Origin: Chrysomallon squamiferum
Lineage: Eukaryota; Animalia; Mollusca
Length of the DNA stretch: 64,000 bases
Assembly (NCBI GenBank): GCA_012295275.1
Contig: CM022670.1
Span: 15,500,001-15,564,000, forward strand
Reading direction: 5' to 3'
The position numbers and the translations under genes were made by a program. Under the pieces are notes generated by a model. That model saw nothing but the letters and a program-made list of their open reading frames with translations. It was not told where the DNA came from and ran no database searches. Below, piece by piece: positions 3,685 through 35,065 of the stretch. Every line of letters starts with the position of its first letter. Position 1 is the first letter of the stretch.

Positions 3685-5501
3685 CCCTAATAAATGTTGG
3701 TTAGTCTTCACATAAAATGCAAGGTCTGTTTTTCAAACATTTTATAAATGATTTAAAGAAATAAAATTTTACATACATTCTAAATTTATTCTTTAATGTT
3801 TTAATTTTACATCATACACATCAAATTTAATGTTTATTTCATTTATTTTAACAATTACATAATAAAATGTTTATCATATTTAGTTTTAAAGTTTTTATTG
3901 GTATGAACTACACAACTACATTTATTCTGGCTATTTTAAGACACCTGGTCACACTTCAGTCGACCGATGTGGTTAATTGAAAACATTAAACATTCACGTT
4001 ACCTGTTTAAATTTTGTCGAAATCCAGTTTTATTTTTGTTCCTTCGTTACCTCTTATGTTTTAGGCTGGTCATTCTGCAGCATTTCATCTCTTTATTTGA
4101 TAAATAATTGTTGAACTATGGCAACCTTCACTCCTGTAGGTATCTTGTTTATTTAAATTAGGCTTCAGAATATTTGCACGTTGCAACTTTTTCATCACAA
4201 ACTAGCATTATGCAAGACTGGGGTTTATGTACCGTTATTTCCATCATTCAATTTTTTTATTAATATATTTTTCTTTCGGAGGTTAAATCATATAAAATAA
4301 TTCTTTAAAAGTTTTTATATTTTTCACATTTAGTTTATTATCTATCACTTTTAAAATAAAAACGATACAAAACTATTGTGTAAGAAGTGGTACAAGTGTG
4401 GTACAGTACAGAAATTAAAGATGCACTGAAAAATCTTGGTTGTGTATATCACAGAATATTTATTTATTTTTTTTTTTAAAAACCTGTTCAGACAGAAATT
4501 TTAAAATGCTTTTCTATTCTAATCCTCTTTTGGTTCTTTCAGGCCTAACCTTTAAATGAAATTTAATCTGCAGTTTTTAGGTGTACAGAAGACCAGCTTA
4601 GTTTCAAAAAATTGTTTATAGCTAGTTATTTTCAGTAACACTACGTTTGAAGCAGTTCACTTGAGGATGCTAAATAAAATTCGTAGATTAAGTGTTTATT
4701 ACACAGTATAAACAAAACAAAACTGGGCTGTCAACTGTTCACAGATTATTTTTCTACTTTTTAATATTTTATTTTTTTTACTGTTGGTTTATCAATGATA
4801 ATGAATTTTGTTTCATCTTCTTGCATTTAGAAGTTTGACAAGTATTTTGTTGTTTTTTTTATTTTCATAATATAACTAGTTATTTGGAAAGTTGGCAGCC
4901 CATAAACACACACAATGACATTTATTTGATATTTTACATTTCGACTAACAGCTAAATTTATCAGTACGAGCATTTGACATTTTAAAATCAATTTATTTAG
5001 CACATGATTACAATAACAATACAAAAGATTATTTTAGCGCTAACATTTTACAAGTAAAGACATTAATCCTGTTATATAAAATACATGTAGAGGAAACATT
5101 TAGGGGGTACTAAAAACATTTACAATTCTTTATTCTGTCATTTACAATACAATTTTACCTTTAGAGACAAAGGTTAATTCCTGATTTATTATTATTATTA
5201 TTTTATTTTTTTAAAGTTAAAGACATTCCTACAAAATGCGACAACCTTAACATTTGGTAATTGTTTTAAAACTTAGAAATGTATACATTTTTATGATCTA
5301 TTATTATAGCCTTATTTGCTGTTGGGCATCTTCCCCCATTTCATTTCATTTCAAAAACATGATTTCCCCCGTAGTCCATTAAAACCTGCCGTGCCACTGT
5401 AAGGGCACAAACTTGTATGTATGTACCTCAACATTTAAACTGTTCATGTGACAAGACAAACGATGAATGATTCGAATGATGGTAAGCACCAAGCTCAACA
5501 C

Positions 5502-8500
5502 TTAATATGCGCCTCCACCTCGGGGAGCTCCGTATGGGTGTGTCCGTGCTCTCATACCACGCCCTGACGTTGGCTTCACTGGACCACCGCCAGATGTCCA
5601 TCCACCACCTAAATAACAACAGTTTAGTGTTTTAACAATCCTATCATCTGCACTGACATGTCCAATATATAAAAATTCAAATAATTAACATTGGTTGGTT
5701 ATCAGAAAACTACATCCATTTATATATAAAAAAAAAAAAAAAAAAAAAAAAGGTAACCTCTTGAATGCTTGTCGCAAGTAATGGAGACTGAGATGGGCAC
5801 CGACAACCACAACCAGCACTATGATCTTGCATTGATCTGTGGCCAGTTTGAAGTGTGGACAACCCCAATACCAAGAAAAACACTTGGCACAAAGAGCTGT
5901 ACGGCAGAACAATCTACACACTTATTTTAGGGCCACAGTGAAATTATACAGATAAATAAAGCTGTTTAAATCTTTTCATACATGACTAAGAAAATTAAGA
6001 ACTTCCACACCATATTCAGTTTTCATATTAACAATATCATCCAGTTATAACTGATGAAAATTTTTTGACTATATAAGTATTTTTGAATGTCAGAATTTGG
6101 TTTTAAAAAGCTGAGAATATAATTGTACTGTTTAAATGAAAAATAAACTTACTGTAATCTTCATAACCCCCAGCACCTGTTCCTCCTGATCCATGCCCAT
6201 AATCAAAATACTGCGTGTCACTAAAAGTAAAATGGAATAATTTATCTAGCAAAGAAAAAACAAACATAAGTTTCATTAAATCTGTTTAATCAGATACACA
6301 ATCAGTATAAAAATAGGCAGTTGGTAGATACAGTCAAATCTGAATTATTACCTTGCACCACCATATGAAGGATCAAAATCTCCTTCTCCATAACCACTTC
6401 CGACACCTGCACTAGCATATGGATCTTCAAATCCCTGTTGAAATAAAACATGATTACAACTTTATCTTAGTATTTACACAGTATTCCTGAATATTTAAAA
6501 CAACGATTCAGACAAAGAATTCTCACTCTGTAGCAAAATGGGCTAGTAGACAAATACATTACATAGTTAGTTGGGAATCTTTTGTAAGCAATCAGTTTTT
6601 TCCCCACAACTAATATTCAGTTTGAGTCAGCTTTTTTACTTTTAATAATCCTAGTTTTCTTAAATCATGGGGACAGTGGCCCATTTGTTGAATGTTAATA
6701 CATACACCAGCATTGTAAGGGTCTTCAAAAGCAGCTCCTTCGCGAGGAACACCACGACCTCTCGCTGCAGGAGCACCTCTGGGCATGCCCCGAGACATGC
6801 CCCTTGGTGCCGGAGCCCCACGTCCTACAGGAGCACCCCTGAAAAAAAAACAGAAAAAAATCATGTTATTTAAAGCTGTTTAAACATAGGAATACAGATC
6901 GCTTATACTCCAAAATACTAATCTACTTTTTAAATGGATATTAATTTATAAATGCAAAAAGGATCCCAGTAAATAAAATAGAAAAATTAGAAGATTCCTT
7001 TTGTAGTAATTTCATCAATTTATGGCAAGTATATATATAAAAAACCTATCATTTACTGTATTCCAGTCACACTGTATTTACCTTCCAGCTGGTGAAGCAC
7101 CTGGTGGGCCTCCACGTCCTCTGGGGGCTCCACGAGGTGCACCCCGGGCTCCTCTGCCACCACCCCGTGCAGGTGGTTGTCCATTAGCCATATACCCCAT
7201 CATATCAAACTGCTGCATACGAATCTCATCATTGTATTCCTACAAGCATTTTAAAACCTGATAATACTGGAAGTAGGATGTGTATGTTACTGTCAAGTGC
7301 CTACTGGATAATAGTTATTTAGATACTTACATAATAAATAACATCTTACAATTTGGACGTTAAATGTGAACACTCACAAAAAACAGCTCAAGAAGAAACA
7401 ATAAAATAAAAATTTTATGACTTTTCAATATGTACTCACTGGTACTAAATATTTCTTCAGTTCTGCTAAACCATGTGCTAATCTGGCATATGCATCTGTG
7501 TTTTCAGAGAATACCTCCACCAAAACATGAAGGTCGTCATTTAAGTGGGCAAATTTTCCACCCTCTTTGCGACATTCTTCTTCCTTTGAAATCAAACAAA
7601 TAACAGCTGATCACAAAAATTATTAATGATAATTCAAGTTAAAAAAAATGGACTGACTTTCCACAATAATGCTACCTTGTATGGTCGTCTGGGTTGTTTT
7701 TTTGTTTTTGTTTTTACCAAAGATGTTGCTGTTTAGATAACAAATAGAATTATTACATTGGAAATTATTAACTGTATTTATATATATATTAAAAGACAAA
7801 ATACAGATTAACATGCTTAGCATAAATTATAATATTTAGTTCATTTGTTATTTCTGGTTGAATAGTGATGAACAGCGTGCCTTATAGTCATCTGGTTCCG
7901 ACAAAAGCAAAAAGCAAAGACAGAACTGATGGTACAACTCACCTTATTTTTATCTCGCATTGAACCTTTGCCTAAAATTGACATTTTTGTTCCTGTCTCT
8001 TCTTGTATTTGTTTCAGGGAAGCTCCCTTTGGACCCAGTAGTTTACCAACAAAATTATACTTTAAAAAAGAAAATAAAAAATTTGAAATTTTAATCTTTA
8101 TCAAAACAAAAACATTATTAAACATGTACACAAACATATATACTTCACTATGCAGGAACATTGAGGAAAAAAAAAGAAGCAAGGAATGTTTATAAATTGT
8201 CACTAACCTTTGGATGTTCCTTAACGGGAATGCGGACTCTGACAGCAACATGCTGTGGCTGATCATGGTGGATAGTTATCCATGGAATGATCCTATCTTT
8301 TGATTCTCCTTTTTCAATTCTTGAGATTTCTGTAACAAACAAAAAAACCACTAAAATTACTTCTGAATTTCAGTATTTAAAAAATACATGACACAGTCAG
8401 TCACATATCACTGGGTCTTTTTTTTATATATATAATTATGGTCCTTTTTGACATTTAAAAATAATGCAGTATAAAGTAAAATCAAAAATAACAAATGGAC

Positions 8501-9942
8501 ACATGCATACACATATTACTTTGTGATACTGAATACTTTTTTGCATCCAGTTTTAATATGGATAAATGATACATTTATAAAAATTCGCAAGATCTATGTG
8601 GCTAATGAGGGAAGATCTGCAAAAATCTGTCCAAGAGCAATCTTAGAAATTATTTCTTTGTAAACACTGTAGCAGATTCAAAAAAATAATAAACATATGC
8701 ATGGTAACATTGAAAAAAAAAAAAAATTACTAACAACGTTAAAGACATGAATGAAATAATGACATTAAAGAAACTGAAATTTATACAGTAAGATCTCATT
8801 AGGACCCGAGTACATCATGACATGAGAAATAAGGTGTGTGATTAAACAGAACAGCAAGATATAAACTTTCGCATGTAGTATAGTTGTAGACTCAATAATT
8901 TTTCCCCAATTAATGTTCTTGTAAATTGCCAATTTGTTTCCATGTTGGATGCTGCATGTCAACTACACACATATAAAAAAACGATCAAAGTATACATCAT
9001 GTTTATGCATGTCAGTGCAATATGCTTTACATACATCAATAATGCCAACTCCGATTTAATTTGCAAACAATATTTACTTTTCAATATTTGACCACATTTT
9101 ATTAATAATGGTACTTGTAGAAGTTGTACATACACAGTAAAAAGGTTTTGAATCAATTACATGTTCCTTTTGCTAAAACTGATCGTCTTTCCAGCAATGT
9201 TACCATCATGAAGATCAGCTTACAGTTTGTCATCTCCAGCAATTTATTCACGATGCAGTCAATTTGTTTGGTCTTCCATACAAATAATGATGAAATCTGA
9301 TTTTCATGATTTTTCCAGCACAAAGTACTTTGAAAATCAAATTTAAGAAATTTAGAGAGCACTTTCAATGACTTAAACATACCCTGAGACAGGCCTACTA
9401 AGTTAATTAGGTTGAAGATTAGTGGGCATGCTCATCTGGATCTGATGTCAAACATCAAAATGAAATATTTGTCCAAAAAAGGTAACATTTTTAATACTCT
9501 AACAACCAAAGAACCAAAGGCAAATTAACAATTAAAAGATAAACTACTTCTAAATGATTATGAAGTGCTTAACATCATCAAAGATATTATCTTACTGTTA
9601 TCAACTGTGTCCTTTAACTTCATCAAAGGGGCTGAGACTATTCCAGTGGAATATCATAACAGATCAATATACCAAGTTATCAAGAATAGGTGAAACTTAT
9701 TCATTAATGTGAATTAAACATTTCGACCACATAGTTATGTTTATATTTAGAGCCGAACATTCCAGAATTACCCAATAGTTCCAAAGTTTTTTAAATATTT
9801 TATTTGTTGGTGCTTTTTACACACAATGGCCATTTTGTAGAGATCTCAATTTTTAAGGGACCATTCTGAAGTACATTTACACTGATATGTGAAGCCAAAG
9901 TTGATAAAATCATTCGTCTGTGCTAATATATACACAGGGTAA

Positions 9943-9983
<41 letters not shown>

Positions 9984-11915
9984 CACATACATACATATTT
10001 TTATAGATTTGTAACTACCTTACTAGTCCTACAGTTTTTATGCCAACTTGGAAAGACTTGGATGATGGAATAAATTAGAGCATTTTAAACAAGAGTATAT
10101 TAAGAACATATAGACAAGAACTAGATGGATAATGAATTGTACTGTAATAGTACTTACAAAGTTACATGCGGTGTATGGTGTTGTGAGTATAGTAGAAACT
10201 GAATTTCCCTTTACTAAGTGACTTAAGAAAGACATATTTTGGTTTTGGGAGCTTGTTTGAATGTGGACACTGTGAGGCACATATCAAACCAAAAAGGAGA
10301 CTCAACAAGGAAATGTAGTATGTTTTGAATACATGTGGCTATTATATCATCACAGTCCAACTGAAGTAATGTGAATATTTTTTTTTGCATTATCAGGTAT
10401 CAGAAATAAACAGCTCAAAGTCAGATCTTCAGATTTTGTGCAGAAGGTCTCGGCTGTCTTCAATAGCTTACTAAAAAGTGGTGTGCTTAAACAACATCAT
10501 AATGATAATTTTATTCACCAACAAGATCCTTTAAAAAAAAAATATATGGAAATCATGTTGTGGTTCAGGAGAATCAATATGATCAGTCACTTTCTGACTC
10601 ATAGGGAAAGTACTCTGGCAGCCATGATTTATCATATAGTTTCAATGAAAACATTTGACTAGATCTTTCTCGGGCACTGGCTTAGATTGTGTTATTGCAT
10701 GAAGTTTCAATTACACTTTTTAAGAGATTAAATGTTGCTGTTACCAGTGATATTTTTTAAAGGGATCTTATTTGAAAATAGTAGACTCTTTACAAAATAA
10801 AATTATTTTATCAAGCTTTTCTTAGCAAAGACCGTTATACTGGATACATAGAGGGCAAGTTAACTTTTGTATGGTCAAGACTTTTTAAGCAAAGAAAATT
10901 AACCCCATCAGCTTAAAATGTAGTGTGATAATAATGTTCAAAATGCAGTTTGGAGAAACATACTGGGATGGATCACTACCCGACTGAGATTACACTTTTT
11001 TTACAACAGAAACTGAGAAGGTAATAGCTGAGCAATAAACACAAAAATAAGACTTCAAATTTTCCATCCATGAAGTTTTTATTCTGAAAGGACCCCAAAC
11101 TGTGAATAAATCAAGCATTCAAAAGTTAGAAAATATAGCATTGCAGAACAAAATTACAAGCATTTTGCAATTTATAAACAACATTTTCAAAAATGTTTAT
11201 CAAGCGAATCAAATAGACCAATCAGAATGATTCCCAAGCATAGCTAGTAATGTTTAGAAAATTCAATTTTTTTTATATAATATTAATATATAAATTTAAA
11301 TCATTAAATTTCTTAAACATATGACATTCTAAAAAAAAATCAGTATCTTTGCATAAGGTGAAAGACAATTAATAGTAATACTAATAGTAATACTACTGAC
11401 GTACTATACTTATAATACTAAGTTCCCATCAAGTTATCTAACAATACCATTGTCCATTTCGGGTGGGGGGCGAGATTTAATTTTATTCATTCATAATGCA
11501 TATTCCTAAAAGATAAATGTTTATAAAACGTCTGAAGTTGATGGGGGAGAACGACCTTGCGTCTACAGCTGAACCCACGTGGTGGAAATGATCATTTCCG
11601 AATTTTTACATGAACATTTTGTACGGTTTCAGTTTTTTAATTTGTATTAAGCAACCAACAGAAATTTATTTTTAAAAATTAAGAAGCATTCTAACACAAT
11701 ACATCACAGAAAATATTCATCTTTACCCTATCAAACTGTAAGAAAAGGAAAATTAAAAACAACATGGCGTCGTTTCTTATTTTAAAGTACCATGTCCTTT
11801 GTTTCTGTAACTCACCCTGAGATAACAAGCGACCTGAATGTGAACTTGGGTTTGTCTGTTGCATTTCCATTTTTAGCTCTTCCAAATAAGCATTTGGCTC
11901 TGGTTTAGCAGCCAT
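5502..11915 (-). CDS. KHDRBS: KH domain RNA-binding STAR protein, KHDRBS/Sam68/SLM family, 343 aa, 9 exons
   Basis: Phase-consistent GT-AG exons: 11915-11816, 8329-8208, 8059-7943, 7583-7440, 7239-7082, 6838-6706, 6434-6352, 6220-6153, 5608-5502 (1032 nt). QUA1-like YLEELKME; KH core [50 protein letters not shown] and [13 protein letters not shown]; QUA2-like NDEIRMQQ; RG/RGG-rich and Tyr-rich regions; C-terminal RTHPYG resembles the Sam68 PY-NLS. Confidence 0.93.
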
Positions 11916-12015
11916 TTTTTCAAAAGTTTTTTGGTTCTAAATAGTAAAACAAGTTCCTTAAAAAAATCCCACCTAATGACCGAGAGCTTTTTACCTCACC
12001 GGCTGGTATATCAAA

Positions 12016-16343: not shown

Positions 16344-19300
16344 TCAGCAAATAATATCTTCACAGAGTTTATCAAAATTGAGTGGCGACCCAAACATGTC
16401 ATCTGCCTGCTCAGAGTTGGAGTGGATGTTGATCCCCGTCTTTAGGATTGGGATAGCCTTTGATGGGATTCTCATCTCGGTCTTTTTCTTCTGTTCTGGA
16501 TATAAAGTGTACCTGCAAAACATTGAATAAAATCAGCTTTCTTTAGCATTTCTAAAAATGACTGCTGAACGATACCAATGTTTAAATATTTTCATAAACA
16601 GAATGAAAAAAAAATGCACCACTTATGATTATTAATTCCTCTTTTTAACAGAATCATTATACTGATCACCAGTTTTCATGACAGAATAAATGTAACATCT
16701 GCAATAAGCAAGACATTCTTTAGCAGAAATCTATTTTTCACAATACTTTTGTTTTGCATAATGTTTTTCAGAATTTATTCTTTTGGCTTAACAGTTCAAA
16801 AAGTAAAATAAATTAACTTAAGCATTTACCAGTATTCCTCACTGCAATATAAGTAACACCAGGGTCGAGGCATTCCATTAAAGCAGGTGGAAGCAGACAT
16901 GGTATATGCCCCCATATCCTCAAAGAACAGCCAGTCTCCAACATTAAGTTCTGGGAGTAGGCAATCCTCCATGATGCAATCAAGCCCATCGCAAGTTGGT
17001 CCCCAAATGCTTGAGGTAAATGTGTTTTCATCCTGACAATCCTAAAGGAACATACTTGTTTCATTAACAATTCAACAATTATTTAACATTTATTTATTTA
17101 TCAGACAAAATGACATCTAATATAAAAATAGTGTTTGTTATTTAATATTTTAGAAATTTTTCTGTTTTATAAAGGTTTTATTTCAATCCGAAGTTGCTTA
17201 AAGAAACATACCTGGACCAATGATGGTTGCACCTTAGCATGATCAAACAAGAGACAGTTAAATGAGCCATACACTCCATCATTTACGTAATACATGTATG
17301 CTGGTTCATCATTTGGTGTGACAGTTGTTAGCTCCATGTTACCTGAAAGAAAACAGGTTAATAAATTACATACAGCACTCGACGGAGGTGATATTGTAGT
17401 TTCGCCATGAATATATAAATAATATTGAAGCCATACATTATGTTTATAATGTGAAAATTCAAAATGTATATTTCCATTTATCAGAAATGAGAAAAGCTAC
17501 CTAACAGTACATTTAAAAAATTACTGTAATTATACAATTTATTAGCACACACTTAACCAAAAATTACTGCTCCTTCAAGTTTTAACAGTGTGATAATCTT
17601 TCATATTTTACTTATAAGCTGAAGACATGAGAACTAGAAACCTATTTTGAATCTAAAGCAAGTATGAGACTTCAGAAACAAGCTATATTACAAAGAAAAA
17701 TGCAAAAAAAATCTTTCTGTGAATTAAAATAAATTTTTTAAACATACCATTCTTGGGCCTGTCTCGAAGGACAATGCGTTTGGCAATTATGTTGACTGCC
17801 AGTGTGAAGGCTGAAGCGACAAAGTATCGACCTGGTTCTGCAATAATTTGTACACCTGAGTCAGCTGGGAAGTATCTGTCCAGAGCTTCGTTAAGAACTT
17901 CAGCAACCTGAAAGAATAAATTAAATATTGTTCAGATTGTATCCATGCATGGTGATATTATGTACTTTGTGTGTAGCAGGGTAGGTTAATGAAGTAAGTT
18001 TTTCAAATCAATTACAATAACAACATTTACAGGCAGATTTCCATATATATGTAGTCAGAATTTTCTTATATTTTTAAAACAAATATGCAGTGAGATGGGA
18101 AACAAATATATTTTGGTACATTTAACTTCGATAATTGAAGTAATTTTTTTTTTTTTTTAAATACATTAAATTCAAGAAAGCAGTTGCTAAACATAATTTC
18201 TTTTAAAGGCAAAAGAATTTGACTAAATTATTATTTTTACCTCCTTGAAGGTTATTGGAGCTCTTTTCTGTCCAGGGAATCCTCCTCCAACATCAAGCAG
18301 TTCAAAGTTGAAGCCCAGACTTTGTCCCAGCTTGAAAACATAGTAGGCCTGCTCTACTGCCGCTGCATATGCCTCAGCCTCCTCAGCCCCACTTCCAACA
18401 TGAAAACTAAACAAACAGTGTGTGATTAGTCACAAAAGTATACTACAAACAATAACATTATATATATATATATATATATAAAACAATACAGCATCTACAG
18501 AACATCTTTACAAGTGAACATCCTTATTAGTAAGAATACTCTGTTGTTTAAAGACTAATGTTGGCTTTTATTAGTTCATGTGCATACCTGATTCCAATTA
18601 CATTTAGCCCAAGTTCTTTTGCTTTTGTCAGCAGATCTACGGCTTTGTTTGGGTGACATCCAAATTTGATACCTAGGTCACACTGAACTTTGAATTCTGT
18701 AGGGGGCAAGATACGCAGTACCAACCTGAAAACAAAAAAAAATTATTCTTTTTTTTTGTTTTTAATCATACATATATAAAGTTGCACATTTTGTTTTTTA
18801 AATGTTTTCAAATAATTTTTAAATAGAAGATAACTACGTTTATCTGTTATGAAACATAAATAACATTAGGGCATTAAAAAAATATAACATGTAACAGTAC
18901 TGATTACATATTTCTGTATTACTGATTTTATCACGTTTAAAACAAACAAATGAGGACTACGCAACTGAACTTACTTGGCTTCTGGGAATGCCTGTTTGAC
19001 TTTGTACAGTTCTGCTTCATTATCAAATGTCATTGTCCCAACATTTTGTTTTGCTGCGTAACGAATGAAGGATTTCTGTTTACATGGGTTGGCATATATG
19101 ATGCGTGAAGGTGGCACCCCAAGATTTAGAATCTTTTCAATCTCTGTCTGCAAGAAATATGTAACAGTGAGATCAAAATATATTCAAAAACTCACCATAA
19201 CAAAAAACCAAACAAAAATATAACATAAATTTATTCAACTTATTGTGACTGAAAAAGATTATTAATGAAATGTTTCCCTGATCGGTGTATTTCCAGACAA

Positions 19301-20705
19301 TGCTAGAAATGAATTAGTGAAAGCTTTGCATATAATGTGAAGTATTCTAGGTAGATGCAATTTTATACTAAAGCTATGCTTGTTTAAGGATTAAAACTAT
19401 CTTTCTCAAAATCCAAGTTATTTTTAAACGACATTGTTTCTTAAACTTTAAAAAAAAGCAAGAACATACTTGAAAATGATAATCCTGATTTAAACAAGTC
19501 CAACAACAAAGGGCCTCTGATCAAAATTTATTTTAACTGTCATGTTTAAAAAGCCATATATATCTTTTGTTCTGTTCCTTTTAAATATATCACTTATGTC
19601 TAAGAATTATGCTCTAATTATTTGTGAAACTTTTAGTAATGCAGATTTTATTCATGACTGATTTTATCTTACTTTTTTCATCTACAAAGTAACAAATATT
19701 TTTTCAATAAATTATTGGAATAATCAGAAACATTAGCAACATTTAAAGAACTAACCTTGCTTGCACAATCAAACGAGGTTCCCAGGTCAGCTAGAAGCTT
19801 GATTACTGCATGATCGTCATTGCACTTGACAGCTGTAGGATAAATAGAAAATAAAACAATTTTAAACTATTTCTGATGAAGTATTTACTGTCTGAGTCAA
19901 AAACAATTTCCACACATTATTATATCATAATGTAATATGAACAGTTAACTACTGAACAAATTTTCTCAGTGCAAATGAAAAATGCTTATTTGACAATTTA
20001 TAATTTTGTCATGCATTTTTGTAACAAAAGTTCTATTTTATAACCAATCTTCAAACATAAACACTCTAAAATCACATGTATTCCATTATTATGATTATAT
20101 GTATTAAAAAGAAATAAAATTTAAAACAGAAATGCCAAATTTAGTTTACCATAGAATGGATGAACTCGTGGAAGAAGTTTTCTCCATGTCTGATATTTGA
20201 TGATGATGTCTCCTAGATCGGCCACAAAAAAGGCATCCTCATTATGCTATAAAAGGAATAACATTAAATTTAAAAAATGAAAAATATTTCTGTAAGAGAA
20301 TAACCGAAAGTTTACTTTTGTACAGAAAGAAAATTAGGTTATCCAAGTTTGTAACAGATGGCAAACAATTGTAAGTTACTGACAGGCTGTAAGTGAAACA
20401 AAAACTATGAAACCAGTTTAATAGAAATGCCTCACAAAGTTGAAGTTAGTAATATATATCTAACAAACATTTTAATTTCAAAAGCTTTGTTTGTATTTTT
20501 GGGGATAAGGTGATCAGAAGAAGTCAATTAGTAATTTATTACACATTCCATTTTTTTTATTTGTAAATATTATACTTAAAAAAAAGGTCTATAGCATTCT
20601 AACCTCAGACTCCAATGATGCAATCTTATCAATAATAATATTATTCTTTGGTTTAATGTAAGGAAGTGACTCCACAACACAACCATTTCCGATATAATGC
20701 TTCAT
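16344..20705 (-). CDS. ODC1: Ornithine decarboxylase, 474 aa, 10 coding exons, catalytic motifs intact
   Basis: Phase-consistent exons: 20705-20604, 20246-20150, 19832-19756, 19147-18975, 18725-18588, 18406-18241, 17907-17748, 17342-17212, 17041-16830, 16512-16344 (1425 nt). Motifs PFYAVKCN (PLP lysine), [62 protein letters not shown] (catalytic Cys), MGAYT, FNG. Confidence 0.96.
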
Positions 20706-21320: not shown

Positions 21321-24300
21321 CTAGCTGGGCTCCCAAGGTGGCTCTGCGTTGAAGTCAAACTTCCTCTTTGAACGACGTAAGCCCTCTGGGCTTTCCGTGT
21401 AATAGACAGTCGTCAGACTGTCCTGCAAAAGACAAAATAAGCCAAATTTAACTATGTGTTTAAAATATATATACACACTTCATTATCTGATATTTACTAT
21501 TACTATATAACTGTGAGTGTTACTGCACATTATTAAAATACACCTGAAAAAGTTTTCACTTTATCCTAATTGTAATTACTAGTAAAGAGGAGGCATGATC
21601 CTTTTAATAATTTGAACCAAACCATCATGTTTGAATCATTATGCAATGCTGGACTACTGAAACATCAAGTGAAATAATTTAAGGAAATAATTTGATTGTC
21701 AACAAAACTGGTTTTAAAGGTTTTATGTTGTTATTGTGGTGGTGATTATGTCAAGTCTGTCTGTAATGACTAGTCCATCAGATATCAACAGGGTCCTGAA
21801 TTTCAGTTATCTTCAGAATTTATATGAACCTTTAAAACAATAGTAACTTTTGTAGAATTTCAGTATTTTGTCCCATTCATCACAGAATGACTTGTGCTTA
21901 GTTAAATTATAAGTCAACAGTGATTGTGTGCATATGTGTGTGTGTGCTAACATGTGCAATACATACAAAACAAAATCATTTACGCAGTATAAAATAATAT
22001 TTGCTTCTGATGCTTTTGACATTTTTTAGATCATATGTGAATCATTTTCATCTGTCACAGATTCATTATTTTATGCTTATTAACAGCTAATGGTGAAGGT
22101 GTCAGGTTATTTTTGTGACCCGTATACATGTATTACAACAGAAAGGAAATTTTGTTAAAATCTTATTTTTTAAACAAAGTTTTCATATGATACATTTACT
22201 GAATTTTAGTCACAAAATCAAATAAAAAGTAAATAAACACAACAATGCAAATATAAAAGTACCATTTCCTACTTAGTATTAAAAATATGTTCAGAACAAT
22301 CTTCATAAATCAACTACTCTGTATCAAAGCTAGAAAGATAGTTCAGCGGTCCCTCCTCCTAATAATAACTGATGAAAAAATGTTTGTGCAACCTAATCTG
22401 ACAATCAACAGCCAAAAAGTGTTGATAAAGTTGTCATGTAAATGAATGTAAAATAGTGTCATGCTGTAACTACACTAGATGTGTAGTCTATTGTTATATT
22501 TAAGCCTGTATTTTTTCTTGGTTAATATCATTTTCATTTACTTTGATAAAGGATGTCTTAAATGGTTTTTATAATATTACAATTATATAATTTCAGTCTT
22601 TACCAAATATCAGTATGTATATTGTACAGAAAGATGTGATGGAACATAATCAACTTGTGGTTTTCCAAAGACTGAATGGATTTTTCATTAGATAATAATT
22701 TATCAGATTATATTAATGCACAAAATGAATAAACTACTATACAACAGAATGATGTTAATAGAGATCAATGTAAGTTCAAAAACAGGAAAACAAACATTCC
22801 TAGTTTTTGTTATTTCTCTGAAAATGGTGAAAGGTTCTGCTGCCACAGAAGAACACAGTTTAAGACTGGAGATTTCATTTTAAATCCATAACTGGTTTTC
22901 TACTGTGTATAATAATTACACTAATAGTGCATGTCATTTAAACTGCTGTGATATGGGAAAACAGACAAGAATATCTCATCTACTATTCATATTTATCATG
23001 CTAAATTCTTAAGGGTAAGCTTCAAGACATTTTATATTCAGATAAGACATTTCATTTTTACTGGACCTTTACTGTGAAATGTTTTTTGAAGTTAGAATTA
23101 GTTGTATAAAACATCATTGTAGTTTTGGTTTGTCAAATCAACCAGTTTAGTGTTTTTGTTAGCTATAGTGCAGCTAATGTTTGTTTATTTTAAATCATGT
23201 GAGTTACAAAGTAACATGTTTTTTTTAAATTTCAGGTCAGTTTTGTTTATTTGTCTATGTTCAGCCATGTGCATAAAAACAAACCCAGTAACTGGCAGGA
23301 TAAGGTCATGTGTTGATAAAATGTGTCACCAACCTGTGTTTATAAACATTTAAAAAAAAAGTATGTGTTTTTTCAAATATAAATCCTAATCATCCTCTTA
23401 AGTATTTATATAAAACCTGTGATATTTTATATTACTTTTCTCTGTATTTATTTTTATGTCAAAAGAAGAAACTGTATCAAAATTCAGAGAAAAAATGAAA
23501 TCCTCAAAACTGTTAATATAATTTGTATTTTATACCATGAGACAATGATTCAAGGCAACCTTGATAATTGATGTTATCTGGGAGTAAGTAAAAAAAAAAA
23601 ATAAATTCATATTTGAATTTATGTACATAACCTGAAGATTATCTTTTTATGCTGTTGTTATATACGACTACTCACTGTGTAACAAACTATGGGACAAAGC
23701 CCCAACACACCAAGTTTTGCTCAAGTTAATCTCATATCTTTGCAAATAAATCTGTCTACCTTTCATCTATGTCTCTGTTATGTATGTGAGTATAATTTTG
23801 TTAGTTCTACATCTACATTCAATCTGCATCACATTTAAATTACACGTGGCTAGTTTTCAGAAAGTGAATAGACTGATGAAGCATTTGGGGTACCTCACAT
23901 CACTCAGAATGAACTTTGTATCACTGAAATGTAAGTCATTTTTCAAAGCAGTGTATTAACATCTTTAATTTAAAAAATACAAGTTAAAGTGGTTATGTCC
24001 ACTATAAAACTTAATAAATTCTACGGCTATTCTGAATGAACCATTTATGATTAAATTGAGAAAAATTCACATTTTAAAATGTAAAATTATTTACCTGAAA
24101 ACACCCACGAAAGCCTACCAGTTCTAAAAGTCTTAGTTAATGTAATGACACAGTGATTGCCATTGGCACTTGTGTCAAACTGAATTCTGCATTATAAGTG
24201 CCAAGTATCAAGTCTGTATTTAATTACAAAATGTTTATGTTCTGCTACTTATTTTCAATTGTTTGACTGAACAATGGCTTCTTGAAATTACTGTCTGAAG

Positions 24301-25000
24301 CTGACCAAATCAATCATAATGAGCCAAAGTTGTGTATGTACAATACTGTATGGCTGAGGATTTCATGCAAAAATCTCTTGTGTCTTAAAAACCTATTTCA
24401 GTTCTTATTTACTCTTCTGACAAAAAATATATTAGAATAAAAAAAAACTGAGTGAGCTTAGTTAATGTTATTAAATTATTAATCTAAAGACAGACACATG
24501 CATTCGTTACAAAACATTTTAAATTTTTAAAGAAAAAGATAATATACTAATTGATTCTTGTCTATTAAATATTGTCATTCTAACTATTTGTATATACGTC
24601 TGTTGACTAAGCTGCTATTTAAATATTTTGCCTATTACTAAATACTATTATTAGCATATTACATGTAAAAGTCCAAAATTAGCAGAGGCAAAAGGTTGAA
24701 AAGCAGCAACAAAATTTGATATGATACATTATATATATACAATAATAAAAAATATATGTAAGCACATATTACAGATATATCCATTTAAGCTTAGATTACT
24801 ATTAAAAGATGTACACAATATGTTTGTCGTGGGGTTGTGTCATGAATCATTAGTCGGTATGTCTATGAAATAAACTCTTTCACTTTAGTGTCAGCCATTT
24901 GTAACACCAGCATTACACTGCACAGTACAATTTTCTGACACCGTCTCACCTGACCAGAAGGTTCAAGACCGGTTACTTCTTGTTCTCTTACGGCCGTAAT
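21321..25000 (-). CDS. Non-AUG (AUU or ACG) upstream conserved coding region (uCC) of ODC, 50 aa, two exons
   Basis: Exon parts 25000-24950 (donor cag|GTGAGA) and 21422-21321 (acceptor ttttgcAG) join in phase 0: ITAVREQEVTGLEPSGQ-DSLTTVYYTESPEGLRRSKRKFDFNAEPPWEPS*. No AUG after the in-frame TGA at 25021-25019. aagATTa and attACGg are the candidate starts. The C-terminus matches the ODC/AZIN1 uCC signature. Confidence 0.92.
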
Positions 25001-25018
25001 CTTGATAGATTTTGTTAG

Positions 25019-25048
25019 TCAGAATGATAAAAAGTAAACAGGCGACAT
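25019..25048 (-). CDS. Weak-context AUG mini-uORF (MSPVYFLSF*) in frame with the uCC, stop context UGA-CUA
   Basis: tttATG TCG CCT GTT TAC TTT TTA TCA TTC TGA CTA ACA AAA TCT ATC AAG ATT; the ATG is 48 nt upstream of the ATT. Requires the TSS to lie upstream of 25048. Confidence 0.5.
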   Translation of the reverse strand: MSPVYFLSF

Positions 25049-25111
25049 AAATAAACAGAAGAGAAAGATTCCTGCAGTGTCCGGTTCGCTCTACATGTAG
25101 ACTACATTTTT

Positions 25112-25140
25112 TTTATATATTTTTTTTCGGCAATATGGCG
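25112..25140 (-). promoter_or_regulatory. ODC core promoter: TATA box and YY1-like site
   Basis: Minus-strand CGCCATATT (25140-25132) and TATATAAA (25119-25112), implying a TSS near 25090-25065, just upstream of leader exon 1. Confidence 0.55.
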
Positions 25141-25555
25141 ATTGACCTTTGGGGTAGTAATACATTTTGGTACAACTATCTTATCTAACATAAATAATTT
25201 TCTGTGCAGTCGAGGTATCACATTACAAACAACTAACAATAAGTTCCTCAAACACTTTATTTAAATCATTATTAATAAGCATATTATTAGAAAATCAATA
25301 TTAAATTGACGGACTATTTTATGAGATAAAAAAAAAAGGAAAAAGAGGTCATTTTATCGTAGTGCAGAAGTTCATATTTAAAACCTTTTTTTTTTTTTCG
25401 TCCCCTATCGCCGACCGACACAGGTGCGTAGACCCCCAGTGATCTAGTGTTTTCGAAATGCGAAGAAGAATTTTTAAATATTATTTTTAGTCATTTATTT
25501 ATTTACCTTGTTTATCTGTTAAAGCAGATTTGTTGTTACTGTGCATGTATATTTA

Positions 25556-31296: not shown

Positions 31297-34200
31297 ATGC
31301 GAGAAGATTCAAACTCCTGTTCGCCATATTCTCCAGACAGCCCACAAATAATCGAAACGGTAAGACATATATATATTTAGCATTCGCTGCTTTGTATTAT
31401 TTTTAGATATATATTTATATATGTATATATAATTTATTTTTTAACAAAGAAAGTGTCGGCCGATAAACAAGATTTTTGAAGCCTTGGGATTTTTGTATAG
31501 TCATATTTATAAATTACGTTTACCGGAAAAGTATCAGTCTGATAAGAACGAATGTCTACAGAGCTTATTTTTTACATTTAATTTTTAGAAATCCATTCGG
31601 TGTTTATGATTTTGTTTATATTGATGTTACTGCGACAACTTCATTCGGCAAATCAGCTGTTTGCGGAACATTAACATACTTATTTTTATTTACCGAAAAT
31701 ATTTCCTTTCATAGAGGTTTTAACACAGGAGTGTACAAATAAATGCAAACATCTATAAATGACTGAAAACTGTGAGAGAAAAAATTATATTCAGCAACAT
31801 ATTTTACGAAGTTACCAGCGCACTAAAATAATCAGGAAATAACAGCTAACGCCGATTTGTTTATTTTTAAGTAGGTCACTTGGGTTTTTGCTGTTTTTGG
31901 TGTAAATAAATTTACCTCGGTAATTCGAGGTATTATTCGCACTCAAGTGACTTCTGTGGAAAGGTGCACGCACTCTGCGAGTGTGATTGGAAGATGAGTT
32001 GTGCAACATTAGTTCTTGCGCGTCTGTTGCCAGTGAAGCACGCACGAACCGCGTGCTTGCCTTGCCGACATACTGTTGACAGTCCAAAGGTCGGCTGCTT
32101 TGCAAAGGGGTGTGGTTTCTTGCTTTTCGATTGAAACAATTTAGCTTCCTGTCTGGCAAATCATGTAATTTCCAGTTATAAATTGTACGAAATGCATAAT
32201 TACGACCTGTTTTTATTTTACAGAATATTTTATCAGTGTATATTGAAATAAATAATAAAAATAATGTTGACCGTAACCAATGAACTCTTCAATGACTCAC
32301 ATATACGGAAATGCTGTACAATCACGTGTCTGACCTTGCCATATTTGGAAAGTTTACACACACTAAGCACGTGGTTGTTTCAGTTAAACGCATACGCAGA
32401 CAGTTGAAATAAATAAATAAACAAATAAGTAAATGTAAACAAAAGGACAATCCACATTGTGGTTAAGCAGTTCTTCATTCAAATGAAATACACAATAGCA
32501 AAGCCTGAATAAAAGATTGTTGTTTCTTCAGGAAATAACGGGAGGAAAGTTTGTGCACACTAAGAATGAATTAGTAGTTTATACTGTTTAAAAATAGGTC
32601 ATCATTTCACTAAACAAACAAAAACAAACAAACAAAAAATGTATTGTTAACATTCATTCAGAAATTATTTTTAATACCAAGTATCGTGTGTAAGTTACAG
32701 TTGTAACGATAATAAAGATATAAAGGTAATTTGCATGTGACAGTTTGAAAATGTTTCATTTTATATATATATACACACAAATCAATAAAATTTTCAGTGT
32801 AGTTACATTTGATTCATTTCATAAACATGCAGTTTTTGAAAACAAAATTTAATTCAAATTAATTTATTCCTCTAATTTAAAAAAAAGAAAGAAACTATTT
32901 AAATTTTATTAATTTTAATCAAATATGATATTTAATGTGACATGATATATTAAAATGATTTGAAAACAGGACAGAGAAATGGTGCTGCGAGGTGGTCGAG
33001 CTACAACCTGCACTGACCCCATGGAACGCGATGCTGTCGAGACGTTGTTGTCCATCGGTAACAGTCATCAGAAACCAGTGATTGATGATTACGTGTTACG
33101 CCCTGGGAGACTGACACCCCCCTATTCCACGGGATCAGCTTCACCCCCTTGTTCTGATGATGGTTCTGACATCACATCAAGTAATGACGGACTGCAGGAA
33201 CCAAAAACCACAAGAGATTCCAAACTTGCACGAGTGAGCATCAATATATTTTGTAATAATGCAGTTACTTCCATTTTTTTTTTTTTTTTTTTTTTTATTT
33301 TTTTTTTTTTTTATTTTTTTTTTTTTTTTTTTAAAAATATATATGCAACTAGATTAATATTAGCACATAAAACTAAATGACTGATTTATTTCTGTTACAT
33401 TAATTGCAGAGTTACAGGTTAAATTTTGTTATAAACTGTAAACAGTTTTATCATGTTTAACTCCCAACAGTTTTTATATGTGAACTATTTAAAATACAGA
33501 AGGAAGTAAATTAATTATTTGAGGTCATTCTTTCTTTTCTTTTTTTTTTTTTTTTCAAAATTTAAGTTCAGTTTTTTTTTTTTTTTTTTCTTCTTTTTTA
33601 GCTTTTGCTGGAACATCCCATTCCTAAGATCAGTGTGGCAGGATTTGGATGGCAGGCAGCCAGTGCCTCATCACTGACAAAGACCACCCCTCCTCAGAGT
33701 TCCAGTGTTCCAGTGATTATGCCACCAAGAAAACGCAAATACCCACCAGAGCTTTTCGAAGGCAACAAGGACACAACCAGCTGTGTTGTGAGGGATTCGC
33801 TTACGCCACCAGAAAGTCCACGCCTCACTTCTGCACCCACGCTGCAGACACCACCCGACAGTAACAAGAATTCCCAGAAACCCGACCACAATCACAAGCA
33901 CCCTGTGCCGTCTGCTCAGCCTCCTGTTCACCAGAACTTTTATCGTGAGACAGAAGAAATTCTGAAATCGAATGGTGAATTTAGACATGAACCTCTCCGT
34001 GCTCCTCAGGGACAGTTTCCCCTCATCGTTCCAGCTCAGTCTGATCTGTCCAGGGTGCAGGGCCAGATACCCACCGCTGGTGCAAACTGTTCAGGAAATG
34101 TGCCAACTTTTATTTCCGAACAGAAATTTCCTGGGAAGAGTGCAGAAGCAATACCACAAATCAAATCTCAGATTCCCATTCTGATGCCGCTGAATCAGGC

Positions 34201-35065
34201 CCCCATTGTTCAGGTGTTTGTGCTCGGGGCGGGTGCTGTGGCGCCGCCCCGCAAGGACCACTTCGTGAAGACAGACAATTACTGTGCAATAGCGCCTGCT
34301 CCAGTGATACCTCAGTCCGGCTCGCAGACTGACGACACGTTCAGTGGCGACATGAAGCGTCGACGCAGCCACGCCTGTCATTTCAAAGATTGTGATAAAA
34401 CGTATTTCAAAAGTTCTCACCTGAAGGCACACATTCGTACTCACACAGGTAGGATTTCATTTTACATGATGTTAGAGAAATAAAAATGATCATTTAGGTT
34501 ATCTTCTAAATTTTAGACTTTTGCCATGCTACAGAAAGAGGAACTGATTGTTGTTTTCACAGCTTTTGTAAAAAGGCAGCGTGTCCTTTTCTCTCTGTAA
34601 TTGTTCACTTCTTTATTTATTTATTTATTGACATTTTTAATGTTTAATTTATATTTGTTTTCTGAAGAAAGAATAAACCTTTGACATTGGCAGTGTTACA
34701 GAAAGAGATATTCATTGTTCATTTCGCAGTATTTGTCAGAATTTTATAACTGAAATTAAACAATCATATACCATTTTTTTTTTTTTTTTTTTTCATTATG
34801 ATTAAATTTTGATTTCCGTGTTTCAGGAGAAAAGCCATTTGTTTGTAACTGGGAGTTGTGTCTGCGCAGATTTGCGAGATCTGACGAGTTGTCCCGACAC
34901 AAACGCACACACACAGGTGAGAAGAAGTTTGAGTGTGGACAGTGCAACAGAAAGTTCATGAGAAGTGACCATCTGAACAAGCACATGAAGACTCACACCC
35001 TGAACAAGAAATCTCCAAACTGGCAGACAGAACCACACGAAGATAACAGTGTTTACGTATGGTGA
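31297..35065 (+). CDS. KLF10: Kruppel-like factor 10/11 (TIEG/cabut-like), 470 aa, 4 exons
   Basis: Phase-consistent exons 31297-31359, 32970-33233, 33602-34448, 34827-35065 (1413 nt). Sin3-interaction-like [23 protein letters not shown]; three C2H2 fingers with [32 protein letters not shown] and FMRSDHL typical of KLF10/11. Exon 1 is less certain than exons 2-4; likely pro-ortholog of both vertebrate genes. Confidence 0.92.
31967..32055. promoter_or_regulatory. Two ChoRE-like (E-box-N5-E-box) elements with an intervening CCAAT box, KLF intron 1
   Basis: CACGCA-ctctg-CGAGTG (31967-31983), ATTGG (31986-31990), CACGCA-cgaac-CGCGTG (32039-32055), compared with consensus CAYGYG-N5-CRCRTG. Confidence 0.5.
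32293..32373. promoter_or_regulatory. Immediate-early-type enhancer cluster in KLF intron 1
   Basis: TGACTCA (AP-1) 32293-32299, CACGTG 32323-32328, TGACCTTG nuclear-receptor half-site 32331-32338, CArG CCATATTTGG 32339-32348, CACGTG 32368-32373, all within 81 bp. Confidence 0.55.
34568..34690 (+). repeat. About 120-bp element in KLF intron 3, copy 1
   Basis: tgtaaaaaggcagc...taattgttcacttc...(ttta)n ttgacatttttaatgtttaatttata; a diverged direct copy lies at about 36683-36820. Confidence 0.75.

Follow-up and report, generated by a model that had tools for sequence, protein, structure and literature searches.

A 64,000-nucleotide stretch of the Chrysomallon squamiferum genome (the window; GenBank assembly GCA_012295275.1, contig CM022670.1, positions 15,500,001 to 15,564,000) contains a minus-strand ornithine decarboxylase (ODC) gene whose 5′ leader carries a polyamine-sensing upstream conserved coding region (uCC), preceded in the same frame by a short AUG-initiated upstream open reading frame (uORF) that ends in UGA-CUA. 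Judged from the sequence, the best reading of this arrangement is selected readthrough entry into the uCC, a reading that we favour without great confidence. The layout is real and likely functional, and a few ribosomes likely read through the uORF stop into the uCC without needing its weak AUU start. The elements of the leader and gene are as follows, from 5′ to 3′ along the transcript.

25019..25048, minus strand: AUG mini-uORF, MSPVYFLSF and stop, with its ATG at 25048-25046 in weak context (tttATGt), 9 codons, 48 nt 5′ of the uCC start (sequence).
25015..25021, minus strand: UGA-CUA-A leaky stop context in the uCC frame, TGA at 25021-25019 and CTA-A at 25018-25015 (sequence; UGA-CUAGGC at the matching place in two relatives, L007 and L014).
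25001..25018, minus strand: six-codon open linker, LTKSIK, between stop and AUU (sequence).
24950..25000, minus strand: exon 1 part of the uCC, AUU start (aagATTa), 17 codons (sequence).
21423..24949, minus strand: intron 1 (3.5 kb), interrupting the uCC between codons 17 and 18 (joint present in the X2, X3 and X4 RNA contigs).
21321..21422, minus strand: exon 2 part of the uCC, 33 codons (21422-21324), ending in FDFNAEPPWEPS and stop, with PPW at 21341-21333 (sequence).
16344..20705, minus strand: ODC coding region, 10 exons, AUG at 20705 (spliced RNA contigs, protein match, Pfam domains).

Translation from 25048 gives MSPVYFLSF-stop-LTKSIK and then ITAVREQ... from the ATT at 25000, all in one frame, and the readthrough product computed from this frame would have 66 residues; the layout of the original prediction (weak AUG, nine codons, UGA-CUA-A, six sense codons, in-frame AUU, 66-residue product) is thus confirmed. 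The UGA followed by CUA at 25021-25016 is the core of the programmed UGA-CUA(G) readthrough context. Four of the 1518 ATG mini-ORFs in the window end in TGA-CTA, and the full layout has p = 0.0003 in shuffles of the last 80 nt of the window leader. Because the window case was selected by eye, the proper test of the layout lies in the relatives.

The uORF lies within transcribed and spliced sequence. The joint of exons 1 and 2 is present in RNA contigs of three of four runs (X2, X3 and X4, from one study), and the joint-bearing contigs begin at 25142, 25077 and 25125, so that all three include the AUG and UGA-CUA-A; the prediction had been staked on a start of transcription that is not downstream of 25048, and on this point it stands. 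No differing letter is listed at 25000-25080 in X2, X3, X5 or the X4 piece, and the X5 run, from another study, differs only upstream (25088, 25106 and 25113). Run X1 has no contig listed over 24979-25091 in what is a filtered listing, and is hence uninformative. Assembled contigs cannot fix a transcription start site. The region further upstream contains three elements:

25112..25119, minus strand: TATA-like element TATATAAA (sequence).
25102..25107, minus strand: AUG-UAG start-stop in good context (aaaATGt), AUG at 25107; covered by the X2 and X4 contigs, not by X3.
25091..25096, minus strand: second AUG-UAG start-stop, in weak context, AUG at 25096; covered by the X2 and X4 contigs.

The TATA-like element is predicted to put the main start near 25090, below both AUG-UAG pairs, and the pair at 25107 would be in the mRNA only if transcription begins further upstream. 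The description of the 25048 AUG as the only one in the leader therefore holds if transcription starts below ~25094 and fails for the X2 and X4 contigs, which cover both pairs. The two pairs overlap a small inverted repeat, ATGTAG-T-CTACAT (25108-25096, minus strand), situated between the TATA-like box and the predicted start, and CGCCATATT at 25140-25132 resembles what we take to be a YY1 motif.

Relatives were collected by a single scan of a metagenome collection for sequences encoding AEPPW(E/D)PS-stop, a pattern that takes no account of the leader; they were thus chosen on the uCC tail alone, and the stop motif had been named before they were examined. The scan gave 26 loci: 18 with an ODC match, L009, which from its peptide is presumably a fish AZIN1-like uCC, and seven chance matches (L003, L004, L005, L011, L013, L021 and L025). 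L008 (8 nt of leader), L018 (35 nt) and L019 (no exon 1) were left out, as were the near-duplicates L020 (of L016) and L022 (of L015), and 14 distinct animal leaders were used, 12 from mRNA contigs and two genomic; the mRNA contigs contain 79-224 nt ahead of the uCC start. The same pattern has no matches in prokaryote genomes and three in viral contigs, all by chance, and a protein search with uCC exon 2 found no match. A HMMER search returned four peptides without DNA, most of which resemble intron-exon read-ins, and these were not used. In L008 the place of the AUU of other leaders, 46 codons ahead of the uCC stop, is taken by an in-frame AUG in weak context (L008:9-11), and its uCC is possibly AUG-started.

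An in-frame AUG with TGA-CTA and an open frame into the uCC is found in two of the 14 leaders (L007 and L014), where 0.005 are expected from dinucleotide shuffles; none of 4000 shuffle sets reached two leaders, and generous binomial nulls give p = 1e-4 to 2e-3. On the proposed check of relatives, the layout recurs exactly in these two independently found leaders, with UGA-CUAGGC in both; the motif with an open downstream frame is far above chance, yet absent from both caenogastropod lineages. Both TGACTA words within the 1812 leader bases lie in the uCC frame behind an in-frame AUG, and CTA follows the main-ORF stop in none of 16 of the same mRNAs. L007 is sister to the heterobranch gastropod Bradybaena (100/100; tree of 38 proteins) and L014 falls outside the mollusc group, its nearest named proteins being 55-58% identical or long fused models; the two leaders share only 13 letters, which are the motif itself. 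The L014 uORF has an optimal AUG (aaaATGg) four codons before its stop, and no in-frame AUU follows that stop.

The in-frame uORF stops of the relatives are TGA-CTAGGC in L007 and in L014, TAA-CAGTTC in L017 and TAA-CTATTC in L024, so that CUA follows the stop in three of four; L016 has a second, in-frame uORF ending in TAA-CCA. Out-of-frame uORFs end in TAA-ACT, TGA-TCA, TGA-TCT, TGA-TGG and TAA-AAT. C is present at +4 in all four in-frame stops versus none of five out-of-frame stops (Fisher p = 0.008), or in three of three versus none of four after merging sister leaders (p = 0.029).

The uORF itself is more widespread than its leaky stop. An AUG 42-56 nt ahead of the uCC whose frame ends before the uCC is present in nine of 14 leaders against 2.3 expected, with the range chosen after the data were seen and the L014 start uncertain, and the uORF is thus an old, widespread positional feature of animal ODC/AZIN leaders. 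This position fits the two to three position-conserved conventional uORFs of vertebrate AZIN1, reported with an unknown effect (PMC2811004). In five of the nine relatives with such an AUG the uORF is out of frame, so it must act without readthrough as well; L009, with its fish AZIN1-like exon 1, has a uORF that ends 2 nt ahead of the AUU. The original prediction missed this breadth and the frequent lack of a shared frame, as well as the two further AUGs possible in some transcripts.

Other regularities of the leaders were noted. The uORFs of L001, L012 and L015/L022 have the uCC in their +1 frame, at gaps of 10, 19 and 19 nt; ribosomes shifting by +1 at the stop would run into the uCC in L001 and L012 but into a TAA in L015/L022. 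An antizyme-like +1 shift is rejected for the window, L007 and L014, because their +1 frame stops at once (GAC TAA or GAC TAG), and is possible for L001 and L012 only. An in-frame TAA lies 12 nt (four codons) before the AUU in L015, L016, L017, L018 and L024, leaders of different branches with or without an in-frame AUG.

The gene is assigned as ODC from matches of its window exons to PF02784 and PF00278. The spliced protein of 474 aa is 85.7% identical to a Gigantopelta aegis ODC-like protein, groups with Gigantopelta and Haliotis in the tree of 38 proteins, which places the snail among gastropods close to the neomphalines, and contains AVKCND and GPTCDG, which we take to be the catalytic lysine and cysteine motifs. 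RNA contigs show the uCC in the 5′ leader of this ODC homolog, spliced to the ODC exons. It ends in AEPPWEPS-stop, with both the two adjacent prolines near the end and the terminal Pro-Ser described for animal uCCs (PMC2811004), and this tail also occurs in 19 loci of the metagenome scan. The AUU at 25000 is in good context, in frame and 50 codons ahead of the uCC stop, compared with 46-49 codons in most relatives. In every feature examined in its sequence, the window uCC matches the animal uCC family, to which it adds an ordinary new member.

An ACG (24997-24995, minus strand) directly follows the AUU; having A at -3 and G at +4, it stands in optimal context as a further candidate near-cognate start, and ATT ACG is also found in L012. 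The bases 3′ of the uCC stop are conserved as nucleotides, with TATTT(A/G) in 10 of 17 loci and TAT or TAG first in 14 of 17 (TATCTG in the window, 21320-21315, minus strand), possibly as a termination or reinitiation signal.

The series of uORF, stop, linker and uCC lies in the spliced transcript and recurs in relatives, where an old AUG is situated ~45 nt ahead of the uCC and the in-frame cases have a stop followed by C; readthrough (from mammalian reporters), stalling (from AZIN1) and any polyamine tuning we infer. In those reporters UGA-CUA alone gives 1.5% readthrough, MDH1 UGA-CUAG ~3.5% and OPRL1 ~31% (PMC4132726), and the snail UGA-CUA would accordingly pass ~1.5% of ribosomes, and UGA-CUAG more. 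Ribosomes that read through, about one in a hundred here, would translate all 66 residues and, with eIF5A inhibited by polyamines, halt at PPW, where they would seed a queue that raises AUU initiation and represses ODC, as in AZIN1, where rare uCC ribosomes stall at PPW under polyamine inhibition of eIF5A and the queue raises AUU initiation (PMC11058473, PMC9082881). The other ~98% would terminate, and either drop off or rescan past the AUU and reinitiate at the ODC AUG ~246 nt further on. They would skip the AUU because the stop is only 18 nt away, too close for recharging, and AUGs that follow a short uORF at close range are recognised poorly (PMC3105428). The stop would thus be a fork between bypassing and entering the sensor, and a queue reaching back 48 nt would favour the weak uORF AUG in turn. 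That polyamines also shift the fork by slowing termination is speculative and rather doubtful; a literature search on polyamine effects on readthrough found nothing direct. The interpretation first offered is supported in part: the spliced AUG and two of 14 relatives favour readthrough entry, and polyamine tuning is not supported so far.

Several observations weigh against selected readthrough in the window snail. The base at +7 is A rather than the G of the full CUAG, a caveat raised at the outset and confirmed here, and this G is particularly important in mammalian cells (PMC4207609, PMC4132726). With UGA-CUAA and a weak AUG, initiation at the AUU and its neighbouring ACG may exceed the readthrough flux. 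Nine folds show no outstanding 3′ stimulatory structure (z -1.85 to +1.29), and the start site is a predicted one. Five of 14 leaders have no AUG at the relevant position, the uORF is in the uCC frame in four of nine, which is not an enrichment (p = 0.35), and in both caenogastropod lineages (L012 and L015/L022) the aligned uORF and its TGA are retained, but shifted by one base relative to the uCC frame and with no CUA after the stop. Support from relatives comes from two leaders, both of them single assembled contigs; CUG and AUC candidates follow the stop of L014 in frame; and two in-frame cases (L017 and L024) end in UAA, which in the OPRL1 context lowers readthrough ~6-fold relative to UGA (PMC4132726). 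TGACTAA also resembles a splice branch word, and one occurs 26 nt before a real acceptor elsewhere in the window ODC gene.

This last word bears on a highly improbable explanation, in which TGACTA(A/G) is kept as a splice branch or acceptor word or as a DNA-binding site near the start, or is there by chance, with a fortuitous frame match. An AAG directly 5′ of the ATT is preceded at 14-22 nt by CTGACTAAC, and TAG-G closes the word in L007 and L014. However, no joint into 25001 is listed in four RNA runs and contigs read straight through; the real acceptors of the gene are T-rich and end in CAG or TAG, whereas the stretch before 25001 is A-rich; the window lacks the AG present in L007 and L014; and TGACTA is in frame behind an in-frame AUG in both relatives that have it. 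It is also quite improbable that selection acts on slow termination, responsive to eIF5A and polyamines, at a weak stop, with a paused ribosome blocking scanning and the readthrough product a by-product. Among the stop signals of a library, UGACUA was weakest and responded most strongly to eRF1 knock-down (PMC5829715), and loss of eIF5A in yeast stalls ribosomes at stop codons and slows termination, in an article whose main text makes no mention of readthrough (PMC5499558), but a pause needs no frame match, yet the weak contexts are found only at in-frame uORFs.

A possible account, although one we consider rather unlikely, is a conventional uORF at which ribosomes terminate and reinitiate, with a leak in the window snail too low to matter even if relevant in L007 and L014. 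Its users would finish too near the AUU and bypass the uCC, setting a basal ODC level, or would leave the mRNA once the queue enhances use of the weak AUG. The AUG at -42 to -56 in nine of 14 leaders whatever the frame (2.3 expected, in a post hoc range), the out-of-frame fish AZIN1-like uORF ending 2 nt before the AUU, the conserved positions of vertebrate AZIN1 conventional uORFs (PMC2811004), the poor recognition of AUGs shortly after a short uORF (PMC3105428) and the weaker CUAA form in the window snail all agree with it. It leaves unexplained the three occurrences of UGA-CUA, each in frame and with a stop-free linker, and the division of in-frame from out-of-frame stops by C at +4; selected readthrough entry remains our best reading.

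The uCC queue model needs a first ribosome in the sensor, and leaky initiation is the only route described in PMC2811004, PMC9082881 and PMC11058473. A uORF stop selected for leakiness would give ribosomes a second way in that is independent of start-codon stringency. It would also be an uncommon case of programmed readthrough that works inside a 5′ leader as regulation and not to extend a protein. For the conventional, hitherto unexplained uORF immediately 5′ of the AZIN1/ODC uCC, the survey suggests a role. The uORF comes in natural versions that share the uCC frame with CUAG, share it with CUAA or lie out of frame, and these form a ready series. More broadly, and only tentatively, several animal lineages could load the ODC sensor by programmed readthrough of a uORF stop, the leaky stop taking the place of the weak start codon or supporting it (and perhaps providing the chief entry in L014), with polyamines acting through eIF5A to tune both the fork and the PPW stall.

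Two neighbouring genes lie in the window. The first (32964-34483, plus strand) is a Kruppel-like factor gene, presumably KLF10/11-like from its motifs, arranged head to head with ODC at a distance of ~8 kb. Vertebrate AZIN1 and ODC1 are near KLF10 and KLF11, and the neighbour would reflect old synteny. Exons of a KH-domain RNA-binding protein, which we take to be KHDRBS/Sam68-like, are directly downstream of ODC on the same strand (5428-11936, minus strand).

The AUU-initiated uCC family is said to originate with Ivanov, Loughran and Atkins (2008) and Ivanov et al. (2018). A literature search that excluded these founding papers and two Dever reviews found no account of readthrough into a uCC; the founding papers, with supplements aligning invertebrate leaders, could already note the layout. 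The vertebrate AZIN1 and invertebrate ODC uCCs described in PMC2811004, PMC9082881 and PMC11058473 have an AUU in good context, ~50 codons and a PPW and PS-stop end, all as in the snail, together with a position upstream of an ODC homolog and extra conventional uORFs at conserved positions. Entry, as given in the same three papers, is by initiation at the uCC's own start codon only (non-AUG, in a minority AUG). The snail differs in having an in-frame AUG uORF with a readthrough-type stop ahead of the uCC.

Readthrough of AMD1 and stalling in its tail were reportedly described by Yordanova et al. in 2018. In its logic AMD1 comes nearest to the snail arrangement: it is likewise a polyamine-pathway mRNA in which rare readthrough into a stall is proposed to start a queue, as proposed here (PMC8831848, bioRxiv 10.1101/710061, PMC13025110), although its stall is 3′ of the main ORF whereas the snail sensor is in the 5′ leader. 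The AMD1 authors later found that an internal ribosome entry site reporter test of the queue was not tail-specific (PMC8831848).

The readthrough stops of OPRL1, OPRK1, AQP4, MAPK10, MDH1 and LDHB (PMC4132726, PMC4207609) have the UGA-CUA core in common with the window, and L007 and L014 have the full UGA-CUAGGC of OPRL1, a sequence conserved in OPRL1 and in Ross River/Getah virus (PMC4132726). At +7 these known UGA-CUAG cases have G and the window snail has A. They extend the C-terminus of a protein, whereas the snail stop belongs to a 5′ leader uORF and its extension would be a regulatory stalling peptide.
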